64,000 bases of DNA, taken from positions 8,249 to 72,248 of IMG/VR virus record IMGVR_UViG_3300012983_000044; one strand, given 5' to 3'. Below are positions 25,186-28,512 of this stretch, one piece after another (positions within the stretch are counted from its first letter, which is position 1; each line of letters starts with the position of its first letter). The notes under the pieces were generated by a model. It was not told the DNA's origin, did no database searches, and saw only the letters and a list, made by a program, of their open reading frames with translations. Origin of the DNA: a virus (lineage: Duplodnaviria; Caudoviricetes). Made by a program: the position numbers and the translations under genes.

Positions 25186-26006
25186 TGGCAGATCGTGACT
25201 TTAAGGGCGTATTCATCCCGAAGGCAATCTGGCTGAACAGGAACCTTAACCTTACGGATAAGGCTGTGCTGGTTGAGATTGACAGCCTGGATAACGGCGA
25301 GGATGGATGCTGGGCCAGCAACAAGCACTTTGCGCAAATGCTGGGCTGCACCGAACGTCAGGCGTCGGCGTCCATTTCAAAGCTCGTGAACATGGGCTAT
25401 GTCAAGGTTCTCAGCTTCGACGGACGTACCCGGTATCTGCGGAGCCTCATGAACGAGAAATGCGCCGAACAGGAGCACGAAAACCGCGAGGCAGCGTCAC
25501 GGGAACTTCCAGGCAGCCTGACGGAAACTTCTACCCTGCCTGACGAAAACTTCCAGGCAGCCTCACAAAAACTTCCACCAAGTAAACCAAAGAGAAATAC
25601 AAGGAGTAAAACACTGAGTATTTCTAAGAATCCTACGGATTCTTGCTCGGAGCCGGAAAAATCCGCCTCCGAGCCGACTGAACCGGCTGTGATTTCTCTG
25701 CCGCTCAATGACGGCACTGAGCATCCTGTCACCCAGGCGGACATCGACAAGTATGTGAGCCTTTACCCGGCTGTAGACGTGATGCAGGAGCTTCGGAAGA
25801 TGGTCGGGTGGATAGACGCAAGTCCCAAGAACAGGAAAACGCGCAAGGGAATCAAGCGGTTCATCAATAGCTGGCTTTCTCGGGAGCAGGACAGAGGCGG
25901 AGGCAGGAAAGCGCAGGCGGCAGATCGGCCACAATCCAACGCCTTCGGCCTTGACCGGCGCAACAACAATACGCCTAAACCGTTCGGGGGTGGGATCATT
26001 GTCTGA
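25185..26006 (+). CDS. replication initiator (HTH N-terminus)
   Basis: FKGVFIP..CWASNKHFAQMLG HTH; internal iterons; RFINSWL C-terminus. Confidence 0.8.
   Translation: MADRDFKGVFIPKAIWLNRNLNLTDKAVLVEIDSLDNGEDGCWASNKHFAQMLGCTERQASASISKLVNMGYVKVLSFDGRTRYLRSLMNEKCAEQEHENREAASRELPGSLTETSTLPDENFQAASQKLPPSKPKRNTRSKTLSISKNPTDSCSEPEKSASEPTEPAVISLPLNDGTEHPVTQADIDKYVSLYPAVDVMQELRKMVGWIDASPKNRKTRKGIKRFINSWLSREQDRGGGRKAQAADRPQSNAFGLDRRNNNTPKPFGGGIIV
25479..25582 (+). repeat. 22-bp iteron-like direct repeats (probable origin)
   Basis: Five units, consensus gaaaacttccaggcagcctgac, inside the initiator gene. Confidence 0.75.
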
Positions 26007-26907
26007 GCAGGATGGGCGGCTGTCCGAAGTCGTCAAGGCACTGGAAGGGCTTGGAGCATTGACGCGGGAACAGTTCAGAGAGCGGGAGTACAAGCGGCTG
26101 GTGACGATTATGAACGAGCGCAATGCCCGGCCGGGGAAACTGAACGTGGATCACATGGACGGTTTCGGCAGGCTGGTTCATGGGGATGGGATCGACTGTC
26201 AAAGGTGCCTGAACCGTGGCGCGGTAATGGTGATTCGGTATGATGGCACGAGCCTTCCGACGCTGGAATATCAGCCCTGCGATTGCGTAAAGCGCAGGGG
26301 CTACGCCAGACGGTTGAGCGATTCCGGGCTTGCAAGGGCTACGAGGAAATATCGGTTCGACAACTTTGAGACCGTGGAGCCGTGGCAGACCTACATGCTG
26401 GACAAGGCGCGAAAGTACGTCCGGGAAGGTGCTACGGAAGGCAAGTGGCTGTACATCGGCGGTCAGAGCGGAAGCGGCAAGACCCATCTCTGCACGGCGG
26501 TTGCGAACGAGCTGCTAAAGTGCGGCGATCTGAAATACGTCGTATGGCCGCAGACAGCAAGGTACATCAAAAGCCTTATCACCGATGATGAACGCTACGA
26601 AACTGAGGTCATGGCGCTCCAGAACGTGAAATTTCTGTACCTGGACGATTTCTTCAAGCCCGTGTTCAACGCCAACGGCATGGAGGCCATTTCGACGGCA
26701 GCGGATGTCCGGCTGGCCTACGATGTGCTGAACTACCGCTATCTGGCAGAGATGCCGACGATCCTCTCCAGCGAATGGTTCTCCGCTGAACTGGCGCAGA
26801 TCGACGAGGCGACGGCGGGGCGGATTGCGGAGGCGTGTGGAGAGTACAAAATCGACGTCGGGCGCGATGTAAAGCGGAATCACAGGCTGAAAAGCGAGGT
26901 GATCTAA
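25999..26907 (+). CDS. DnaC/IstB-like helicase loader ATPase
   Basis: GQSGSGKT Walker A, LYLDD Walker B, Zn-binding Cys motifs. Confidence 0.88.
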   Translation: MSEQDGRLSEVVKALEGLGALTREQFREREYKRLVTIMNERNARPGKLNVDHMDGFGRLVHGDGIDCQRCLNRGAVMVIRYDGTSLPTLEYQPCDCVKRRGYARRLSDSGLARATRKYRFDNFETVEPWQTYMLDKARKYVREGATEGKWLYIGGQSGSGKTHLCTAVANELLKCGDLKYVVWPQTARYIKSLITDDERYETEVMALQNVKFLYLDDFFKPVFNANGMEAISTAADVRLAYDVLNYRYLAEMPTILSSEWFSAELAQIDEATAGRIAEACGEYKIDVGRDVKRNHRLKSEVI

Positions 26908-26932
26908 CTGTGAACAGTTGTTGATTGCACGA

Positions 26933-27004
26933 GGTTAGGTAAGGCGTTGCGAGGCGTGGCGCTGTAGGTTGAGGCGCGGCAGACAAGGCAGGGTAAGACT
27001 GGCC
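26933..27004 (+). repeat. 5-nt-periodic GGY-NN tract (candidate guide ncRNA)
   Basis: GGTTA GGTAA GGCGT TGCGA GGCGT GGCGC TGTAG GTTGA GGCGC GGCAG, then after a register shift GACAA GGCAG GGTAA. Confidence 0.7.
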
Positions 27005-27063
27005 ACAAACAAGATGGATTAACAAATTCAAGACGATGAAAATTTGTGAGGAGGATTAACATT

Positions 27064-28140
27064 ATGGCTACTGCAAAGAAGGTTGAACTGGTTGAGATCA
27101 AGCCCATCGAAGAAACTGTCCTGAACGTGCGTGTGGTTGGCGATTCGCCGCTGATTACCCACTGCTGGGACGCCAAAGCCAAGCGCGAGATTCTGGAAAA
27201 GGAAATGAACCTGACCAAGGTCAAGAGGCGCGATCCCAAAAATCCTGTGGCTGACTTCTGCGCTTCCATGTACTGGCTGACGCCGATGCCGGAGGAGTTC
27301 ACCGATGAAGCGGTGGACGCAGCGATGGCGAACGCCCGGTTCGGCTTCCCGGTGACCGGCTTCAAGCAGGCAGCAATCAGCGCGGCCTACCGCAATGGCT
27401 GGGCGAAGGACAAGATGTCCCTGCGCGGCGCATTCTTCATCGCGCCAGACGCCAACGGCTACTATGCCGGTGATCTGATGTTGAACGATGCCAGGACCAA
27501 GATCGACATCATCCCGAATGTGTTCCTGCACAATCAGCTCATTGAGATCAAGGGCAGCAAACCGGTGATGCGGCAGGACATGGTAAAGGTCGGCATGGGC
27601 GCTGCGGACATCCGCTATCGCGCCGAGTTTACGGAATGGTATTGCGATATGCAGATTCGCTATTCATGGAAGTACGGTAGCCGATTCTCGGCACAGATGG
27701 TCGGCGAGCAGTTTGAGGCCATCGAGAAGCGCGACGGAACGCTGACCAAATCGGCCATCGTGGACGCGGCCCGGAGCGAGGACAGCCCCATGCACGGCAT
27801 GTTTGAGTGGGATGACGCTGTGGCCGGCGAACTGTACCGCGAGAATCAGGCGGGCTACTACATTCGCACGCTGGAGGTCAAGATCGTGCCGGTAGGCAAT
27901 CCGAACGGCAAGCCCGTCACGATGCGCGGATATGTCAATGTAGCGCCGGTTATCAAGAACGCGCCCGAGGGGAAAGGCACGTTCATGAACGTGAACAGGG
28001 CCATTGAACAGCCTGACACGTACATGATCGTGCTGGAACGCGCTAAGAACCAGTTGCGGATTTTCCGCGAGCAGTACAAGAACATCAAAGAACTGGAGCC
28101 TGTGTTTGCGGCGATCAACCAGGTTGTGATGGAGGTATGA
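27064..28140 (+). CDS. Cas7/RAMP-like phage protein fused in frame to its usual downstream partner
   Basis: VVGDSPLITH, FGFPVTGFKQAAISAAYR, MRQDMVKVGMGAADIRYRAEF motifs; after about 27661 it switches to a SPMHGMFEWDDAVAGELYRENQA-type domain. Confidence 0.65.
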   Translation: MATAKKVELVEIKPIEETVLNVRVVGDSPLITHCWDAKAKREILEKEMNLTKVKRRDPKNPVADFCASMYWLTPMPEEFTDEAVDAAMANARFGFPVTGFKQAAISAAYRNGWAKDKMSLRGAFFIAPDANGYYAGDLMLNDARTKIDIIPNVFLHNQLIEIKGSKPVMRQDMVKVGMGAADIRYRAEFTEWYCDMQIRYSWKYGSRFSAQMVGEQFEAIEKRDGTLTKSAIVDAARSEDSPMHGMFEWDDAVAGELYRENQAGYYIRTLEVKIVPVGNPNGKPVTMRGYVNVAPVIKNAPEGKGTFMNVNRAIEQPDTYMIVLERAKNQLRIFREQYKNIKELEPVFAAINQVVMEV

Positions 28141-28143
28141 AAT

Positions 28144-28512
28144 ATGGCAGAGACCAGGCGCGGCGCGGTAATGCTGCTGACAAGTGGCGATCCCGCGATA
28201 TACAACGCGATTGCTGATGGGATTTTGACTGCGAGGGCTTTGACGCCTTCGCAGCCCGAGACCCCGGAGGCGGCGATGATCCGCAAACGCGCGGCGGATG
28301 CCCTGCGCCGCATAGACATGCGGTGCAGGCCGAAGGAGGCCGACGATGACGACATCGAGACCCGGATTTTGAAGGCGCAGGCGACTTATGGCACGGTATC
28401 CAGGCCGTCCGTATTGCGGAGCATCGGTGGGAAACTGTTGGGACTGTACGGTTTTGCAGTGCTAAAGGTGCATGACTTCCTCGATTTCGATAACGCGCGG
28501 TGGAGAGGGTGA
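28144..28512 (+). CDS. hypothetical protein
   Basis: ORF with RBS, operonic spacing. Confidence 0.5.
   Translation: MAETRRGAVMLLTSGDPAIYNAIADGILTARALTPSQPETPEAAMIRKRAADALRRIDMRCRPKEADDDDIETRILKAQATYGTVSRPSVLRSIGGKLLGLYGFAVLKVHDFLDFDNARWRG

Follow-up and report, generated by a model that had tools for sequence, protein, structure and literature searches.

The pentamer tract and the Cas7-like gene that lie behind the DnaC-like gene of this phage appear to be the remains of a VIPR locus of the staggered-array kind, in which a recent deletion of ~1.1 kb produced a chimeric protein, left the phage VIPR-null, and spared a solo guide that would be directed against the DnaC-like helicase loader of a rival phage; we give this reading a probability of roughly 80%. 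Judged from its sequence, the locus belongs to VIPR by descent and anatomy and is not an intact member, so that it is probably best described as a disarmed one. The class of system is already in print and the locus does not represent a new class. What is new here is the 358-aa ORF, which on alignment with its relatives reads as an in-frame deletion fusion of vipr and its partner gene. The locus would be part of the early/replication operon of an uncultivated phage with a genome of 72 kb, and "the window" refers to the whole 64-kb stretch of this genome that was analyzed, on which all unprefixed coordinates are given (Table 1).

In a VIPR system a single RAMP protein, Vipr, works with vrRNAs built from GGY/NN pentamers (10.64898/2026.04.26.720920, 10.64898/2026.04.26.720927, 10.64898/2026.10.15.759431). 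Each vrRNA contains 9 to 16 pentamers. Vipr binds the GGY of each unit and leaves the NN pairs to read duplex DNA, with a one-base skip between pairs, and the outcome is the transcriptional silencing of competing mobile elements (same VIPR preprints, bioRxiv 2026). In the Vipr of phage SUSP1, residues D177, W178, and R179 hold G1, G2, and Y3, respectively, and the D177A change abolishes silencing (10.64898/2026.04.26.720927). Phages that became VIPR-null by deletion retain solo vrRNAs, and SUSP1-like phages carry vipr-targeting guides with low self scores (10.64898/2026.10.15.759431). Staggered vrRNA arrays, in which one nucleotide is common to successive guides, are described in the legend of fig. 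S18 of one preprint (10.64898/2026.04.26.720920). As criteria for membership in VIPR we took at least 4 (typically 9 to 16) GGY-NN/YNNGG units, a target match of at least 80% of the NN positions, and a self match of <80%.

Table 1. Features of the disarmed VIPR locus and its surroundings, in window coordinates
Feature	Position	Strand	Basis
DnaC-like helicase-loader gene, 302 aa as called; ORF opens at 25951	25999..26907	+	phrog_50, E 3e-37
Small hairpin AACTG-TGAA-CAGTT, 5-bp stem, 4-nt loop	26906..26919	+	Over stop codon of DnaC-like gene; direct reading
Putative vrRNA guide	26933..26982	+	Ten GGY-NN units, terminal GGCAG constant in clade; shuffles and match to related guides
Short remnant after one-base staggered junction (GACAA GGCAG GGTAA GACTG GCCAC)	26982..27006	+	Direct reading and comparison with L008
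Conserved vipr leader, RBS GAGGAGG at 27048-27054	27007..27063	+	Conserved between window and L008
Predicted vipr remnant, codons 1-203	27064..27672	+	Homologue alignment, model of relative, profile alignment to SUSP1 Vipr
Predicted deletion junction, TAT common to vipr codon 203 and partner-gene codon 7	27670..27672	+	Base-level comparison; homology to L006 ends at 27663
Partner (vap-like) gene from codon 8 to stop, in-frame fusion	27673..28140	+	phrog_15946; synteny

Pentamer tract and surviving guide

On direct reading of the plus strand, the ten in-phase GGY-NN pentamers are exactly as an earlier note, made from the letters alone, had listed them, with strict GGY in 7/10 units and KGY in 9/10; the three degenerate units are TGC, TGT, and GTT. 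The further units that the same note had placed behind a 1-nt slip are also present, as the GGCAG unit is followed by a phase slip of one base (a 4-nt unit) and the pattern runs on to about 27006, and so is the hairpin that it had seen before the tract, which lies across the stop codon of the gene preceding it. The NN series of the guide is TA AA GT GA GT GC AG GA GC (AG), and the start codon of the vipr ORF lies 81 nt downstream of its 10 units. When every 50-nt frame of the 64-kb window was scored on both strands, 7/10 in-phase GGY was the highest score found, while in dinucleotide-preserving shuffles of the whole window (n = 100) the maximum was 4 in 67 cases, 5 in 32, 6 in a single one, and 7 in none. 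Across the whole 72-kb genome the tract is the sole guide of the GGCAG-ending form. The remnant behind it ends in GGTAAGRCTGG, which also forms the conserved 3' border of the L008 upstream array, and the GGCAG/ACAA junction is found in both L008 and L009.

The scan for terminators did not score the hairpin as one and detected no terminator near the tract. No sigma-70-like promoter was detected near the tract either, so we assume that the guide would be transcribed by read-through of the early operon. The predicted RNA fold of 26900-27063 was no better than that of shuffled sequences (z = -0.95), and an Rfam search of 26700-28300 gave no match. From the periodicity of the tract and its match to guides at related loci, we interpret it as the guide RNA (vrRNA) gene of a VIPR system.

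Related loci and their guides

The related loci inspected comprise three GenBank actinophages, 33 IMG/VR contigs, six MAG prophages, and further metagenome contigs. At about 40 of them GGY-NN arrays adjoin a vipr homologue, and wherever both vipr and the partner gene are held by an inspected locus the arrays are long and stand beside the homologue. The check for a lag of 5 around homologous genes that the earlier note had proposed gave a clear answer, as the gap between vipr and the partner gene is strongly 5-periodic in 30/31 viral loci with both genes; the fraction of GG followed by GG five bases later is 0.2 to 0.76 in the gap versus 0.04 to 0.19 in coding sequence. The normal order in the relatives is the dnaC-like gene, the upstream guide or guides, vipr, a small ORF, the guide array, and the partner gene, and L004 and L008 accordingly show vipr, a periodic gap, and then the partner gene.

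We parsed 152 distinct guides at these loci, with a median of 11 units, and 103/152 end in GGCAG, the last G of which is the first base of the next guide (the staggered form). The two NN positions have entropies of 1.88 and 1.96 bits over the 152 guides and all 16 dinucleotides are used, while the low entropy at guide positions 1 to 3 is partly imposed by the parser. The nearest relative with an array is L008, whose Vipr is 92% identical. Both flanks are conserved between it and the window while the array differs, as the upstream array contains one guide in the window versus about four in L008 and the NN content also differs. From the MAG titles, the hosts of the clade are probably gut or rumen Clostridia.

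Some arrays of actinophages coincide with annotated genes. Gene 43 of Gordonia phage Pipp (L001:3614-3883) and gene 53 of Mycobacterium phage Gorge (L003:2638-2802), both labeled "hypothetical protein" in GenBank, lie wholly inside GGY-NN arrays that adjoin the Vipr homologue, and from their position they are probably miscalled vrRNA arrays. In Gordonia phage Ecliptus (L002:3610-3870), the GGY-NN array is found in an unannotated gap. Such loci occur in about 27 Mycobacterium and 5 Gordonia phage records.

Vipr family and its fold

The motifs that the earlier note had quoted for the Cas7-like gene are all present in the 358-aa product of 27064-28140. A word-indexed search with this protein retrieved 3,652 homologues, and at 50% clustering there were 2,422 representatives. 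AF2 modeled P0005, the closest full-length relative at 90% identity, with a pLDDT of 94.6, and the top 38 Foldseek matches of this model are all Csm3/Cas7/Cmr proteins with a probability of 1.0. VIA, an independent all-against-all aligner, gave Z scores of 10.8 and 10.5 to Csm3 and of 10.5 to a Cmr subunit. The structure prediction suggested in the earlier note thus returned a RAMP fold for the full-length relative (Z 10.8), and its proposal of a Cas7-like RAMP gene holds for the Csm3/Cas7 type to which that relative belongs; it does not hold for the copy in the window as an intact gene, which is a deletion fusion without the G-loop.

The resemblance to VIPR-type loci, which the earlier note had proposed, was confirmed at the profile level in addition to the periodic arrays at the homologous loci. 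With hhalign, a family profile of 82 members matched SUSP1 Vipr with a probability of 98.3% and an E value of 1.5e-14. In this alignment R138 of SUSP1 (thumb) falls on an invariant arginine of the family and the G-loop D177-W178-R179 on the family E-W-R; the SUSP1 residue numbers were checked on the translated gene. We can conclude from the models that the family, P0005 included, is a minimal RAMP with an RRM core, a thumb, and a G-loop.

No Pfam family was found for the window protein, the full-length relative, the C-domain of the fusion, or the 104-aa ORF of L006, and a sequence search of the PDB with the window protein as the query gave a best E value of 0.19.

Deletion and chimeric ORF

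The fused ORF (27064-28140) codes for 358 aa. Its vipr part retains the RRM strands, the histidine of GDSPLITH (H17 in SUSP1), and the thumb arginine (R138), with helix 2, the G-loop, and the final RRM strand missing. In the AF2 model of the full-length relative, the segment lost after residue 203 corresponds to helix H209-223, the loop, and strand E239-242, and 4/5 of the invariant columns of the family, as well as the GxGEWR region, are inside it. The best 120 of the 3,652 homologues are 225 to 281 aa long (mostly 241 to 248 aa) and align to residues 1 to 203 of the window protein only; no other fused form was found among these 120 or in the 40 loci.

The deletion was mapped against L006, L008, and L004. 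L006 is a 1.4-kb contig from another sample that is 99.9% identical to window positions 26751-27663, the same guide included, with 1 mismatch in 913 nt between this intact allele and the window. Past 27663, L006 continues into a normal Vipr C terminus of 41 residues and the window into partner-gene sequence. Compared with L008 or L050, about 1.1 to 1.2 kb was lost, namely, vipr codons 204 to the end, the 104- to 112-aa ORF, the entire downstream array, and codons 1 to 7 of the partner gene. The exact 358-aa fused protein is found on two further contigs, an ENA k141 contig (77 kb) and a Logan contig, to which the window is 100% identical over 5.1 and 3.7 kb, respectively, so that the fused allele is present with an identical junction in three assemblies made with different pipelines (IMG/VR, ENA, and Logan). 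The event would have been an in-frame deletion, about 1.1 kb in length and with a TAT triplet at either end, giving one chimeric ORF behind a single upstream guide. As there is only 1 mismatch in 913 nt against the intact allele, the deletion must be very recent by this comparison, and for the same reason the kept guide and the open frame need not reflect selection. Together, the intact and deleted alleles in sister samples show that VIPR is lost in nature through small internal deletions.

From the alignment, the Vipr of this locus is devoid of the GGY-reading G-loop, i.e., of the equivalents of SUSP1 D177/W178/R179. Since the G-loop is lost and D177A abolishes silencing in SUSP1, we infer from residues and fold that GGY reading is most likely lost in the chimera, which would make the phage functionally VIPR-null. 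As its Cas7-like gene is a deletion fusion without this loop, the locus as it stands is probably no working system on its own.

Partner gene and neighboring genes

The partner gene is a separate gene in 30/31 related viral loci, L004 and L008 among them, and is fused in the window only. In the relatives it is located 190 to 1,200 nt beyond vipr, past the guide array, and this constant synteny is what leads us to call it a putative vap-like accessory gene. The profile of the partner gene was unrelated to that of SUSP1 Vap1. The C-domain that it contributes to the fusion, modeled alone with AF2, reached a pLDDT of 87.7, and fold searches with it gave nothing better than E 1.0 in Foldseek and Z 4.4 in VIA, the latter for a helical hairpin only and neither of them a significant match. 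The partner family, phrog_15946, is also found in Cyanophage Cy-LDV1 (BK059895.1, 30813-31163), where the same search gave no Vipr match. In the nearest relatives, an ORF of 104 to 112 aa (L006:1045-1359 and L050:4828-5166) stands between vipr and the array and overlaps the stop codon of the former; the window has lost this ORF, which may represent a second accessory gene.

On the other side of the locus, the DnaC-like protein has weak Pfam matches to DnaA/IstB ATPase. L054 comes from a phage that shares the replication module (Phage_rep_org_N and a DnaC-like gene) and has a 354-aa gene (L054:3850-4914) in the place of the VIPR locus. We considered this gene as kin of the fusion in the window and rejected it, as the two are unrelated. 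Because an unrelated gene occupies that position in L054, the VIPR cassette looks like an exchangeable insert behind the replication module.

Probable target of the surviving guide

To convert the guide into a target we used the published rule, by which each GGY becomes one wildcard base (the 1-nt skip). In the 72-kb genome the best self match scores 15/20, or 17/22 if one more unit is added on the 5' side, and falls on the 3' end of the resident DnaC-like gene (26845-26873, peptide YKIDVGRDV), in codon register, with each mismatch amounting to a conservative or synonymous codon change. A self match of this type suggested the same motif in the gene of a rival as the target. In the DnaC-like helicase-loader gene of L048/L049 (L048:3910), the guide matches at 18/20 positions, or 17/18 without the constant AG, and the site is in codon register with the skip base on the wobble position, over the codons for YKLDVARDA; it has an AGA arginine codon where the window's DnaC-like gene has CGC. 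In the L048/L049 phage, too, the replication module is followed by a VIPR locus. The rival site is above the published criterion of 80% and the self site, at 75%, is below it.

In a permutation test on the 760-kb set, a score of 18 was reached by 0/400 permutations of the unit order and by 3/400 resampled guides, although the resulting p (under about 0.01) is somewhat optimistic, as homologous dnaC sites are nonindependent and start from a baseline of 15/20. The dnaC homologues were added to the search set after the self-match lead and were chosen by motif; they came from a protein database, while an IMG/VR search with the DnaC-like protein gave one relative. Other searches gave no target for the guide in the 64-kb window (up to 3 mismatches), in IMG/VR (exact scan), or in 31 related viral records and 6 MAG genomes (up to 3 mismatches), and against 401 Oscillospirales genomes (up to 2 mismatches) there was 1 match versus 2 control matches, i.e., chance. 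The earlier note's idea of a guide with a gapped target is thus upheld by the codon-registered 18/20 site in a rival phage, with a gap of 1 nt and not the 3 nt that it had supposed. The likely candidate target, as judged by these matches, is the motif at the C terminus of a rival phage's DnaC-like helicase loader and not the phage's own copy.

According to the 2026 papers, in working relatives the Vipr protomers would polymerize on the guide RNA, one per pentamer, holding GGY and presenting the NN pairs, by which duplex DNA would be read as NN-x-NN-x and transcription silenced. The solo guide of the window could act in this manner only with Vipr supplied in trans by a coinfecting or resident relative.

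Guides of relatives with predicted targets in vipr

Guides of related phages, scored against the same search set with permutation nulls, lend support to the code in this clade. One guide of L009 (2582-2646) matches the G-loop codons (EWRPEKDGQNGM) of rival vipr genes at 23/24 positions and several other vipr genes at 22/24 or 21/24, with 16/24 on its own vipr. One guide of L021 (3149-3218) matches helix 2 of rival vipr genes at 23/26 and its own vipr at 17/26. Both score lowest or near lowest on their own vipr, which is caused by synonymous codon choice together with residue differences. A further guide of L009 (3028-3077) matches L004:4905, inside the downstream guide array of another phage, at 18/20 (null maximum, 16), and from this match it may be aimed at another vrRNA, a case also reported from SUSP1-like phages.

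The L009 and L021 sites are both inside the vipr segment that was lost in the window. We considered whether the deletion is more than mere decay and represents a "disarm and hijack" state in VIPR-against-VIPR warfare. In such a state the deletion would remove exactly the vipr residues 204 to 240 that are read by rival guides, the kept guide against the rival's helicase-loader gene would be loaded onto the rival's own Vipr, and the G-loop-less chimera may be added as a poison subunit. This joint reading is unlikely, and since the L009 and L021 guides reach no more than 0.79 and 0.73 on the intact allele L006, there is no direct evidence that escape drove the deletion.

Alternative readings

It is scarcely credible that the tract is no guide at all and either arose by chance as a periodic G-rich sequence or serves as an ordinary leader. 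Such an origin would account for three degenerate units out of ten and for a tract without a promoter or an Rfam match, but it leaves unexplained a score that was unmatched in the shuffles, the unit length, GGCAG end, and staggered junction that recur in 103/152 guides beside homologous genes, and the conservation of the flanks against L008 while the content of the tract varies; periodic tracts were sought beside the homologues and were present, not absent. The fusion could also be an error of assembly, the true phage having an intact locus, as the source is a metagenomic contig and an intact allele exists in a sister sample. With an identical junction from three assemblies by different pipelines, and with a microhomology of only 3 nt and no repeat able to mislead an assembler, we consider this very improbable.

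If the junction is real, the 358-aa protein might be a natural working fusion of Vipr and its accessory protein and the locus a one-guide VIPR system with nothing missing. The open ORF runs through the junction in frame behind a good RBS, three assemblies contain it, and single-vrRNA VIPR systems are noted in the VIPR paper. Against this, the G-loop E-W-R (aligned to SUSP1 D177-W178-R179), helix 2, and the last RRM strand are gone, there is no second fused form in the best 120 of 3,652 homologues or in the 40 loci, and the nearest allele is unfused and 99.9% identical, all of which make a working fusion improbable. We attach a similarly small probability to a chimera that acts as a poison subunit or decoy, keeping the protomer contacts with GGY unheld and so disturbing rival VIPR filaments. 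In the Vipr filament each GGY is shared between two adjacent protomers (10.64898/2026.04.26.720927), the N-terminal 203 residues are unchanged, and the guides of rivals in the clade aim at vipr genes, so anti-VIPR pressure exists. However, the allele is very young, identical in all copies, and without any sign of selection; 1/3 of random deletions would be in frame anyway, and the truncated RRM core may simply misfold. We therefore prefer the reading of a disarmed VIPR locus with a recent deletion.

Comparison with known systems

The best-matching known system is the type II VIPR of Escherichia phage SUSP1, with which the family shares a phage-borne lone minimal RAMP, GGY-NN guides of 9 to 16 units, one upstream guide and a downstream array in intact relatives, a 1-nt-skip code set on codon wobble positions with a self match of <80%, and aligned G-loop and thumb residues. 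The differences are a sequence identity to SUSP1 Vipr that is detectable by profile only, clade guides that end in GGCAG with a one-base overlap and have no long pseudoknot tail, a partner gene unrelated to vap1, probable clostridial instead of Escherichia hosts, and, in the window itself, a Vipr that is truncated and fused. The last G of GGCAG opening the next unit in this clade is the feature shared with the staggered arrays of the fig. S18 legend.

With the VIPR-null phages that retain solo vrRNAs, the window has in common a deletion that removed VIPR protein function (as we infer here) and left one guide, and, as in the SUSP1-like phages of that type, guides of the clade hit the vipr of rivals near its 3' end with lower self scores. 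In those Enterobacteriaceae phages the whole vipr-vap1 pair was lost, in contrast to the window, where the deletion spans from inside vipr to inside the partner gene and gave a chimeric ORF, the array being lost as well. The predicted target of the window guide is a helicase-loader gene, a class absent from the main text of the preprint on those phages.

CRISPR Cas7/Csm3 proteins share the RRM core, the thumb, and the glycine-rich loop, and Csm3 and Cmr4 are the best structural matches (Z 10.8 to 10.5); they differ in a periodicity of 6 nt, against 5 nt here, and in the second RRM, which is absent here. Beside the Cas7-like gene we detected neither CRISPR repeats nor further cas genes, the neighbors being the DnaC-like gene and small unknown ORFs, and the only repeat at the locus is the 5-nt tract. 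We rejected a CRISPR-Cas identity on the absence of a repeat-spacer array and cas neighbors, in agreement with the earlier note, which had seen no CRISPR array.

Significance for the VIPR family

VIPR was described in 2026 and has been studied in two clades of Proteobacteria phages. The present locus and its roughly 40 relatives extend the code, with its skip on the wobble position and its lower self scores, to a distant clade of uncultivated phages with staggered arrays, in which the predicted targets include rival vipr genes and a replication gene. Last, the near-identical pair of intact and deleted alleles would provide a natural control for the roles of the G-loop and of the downstream array.
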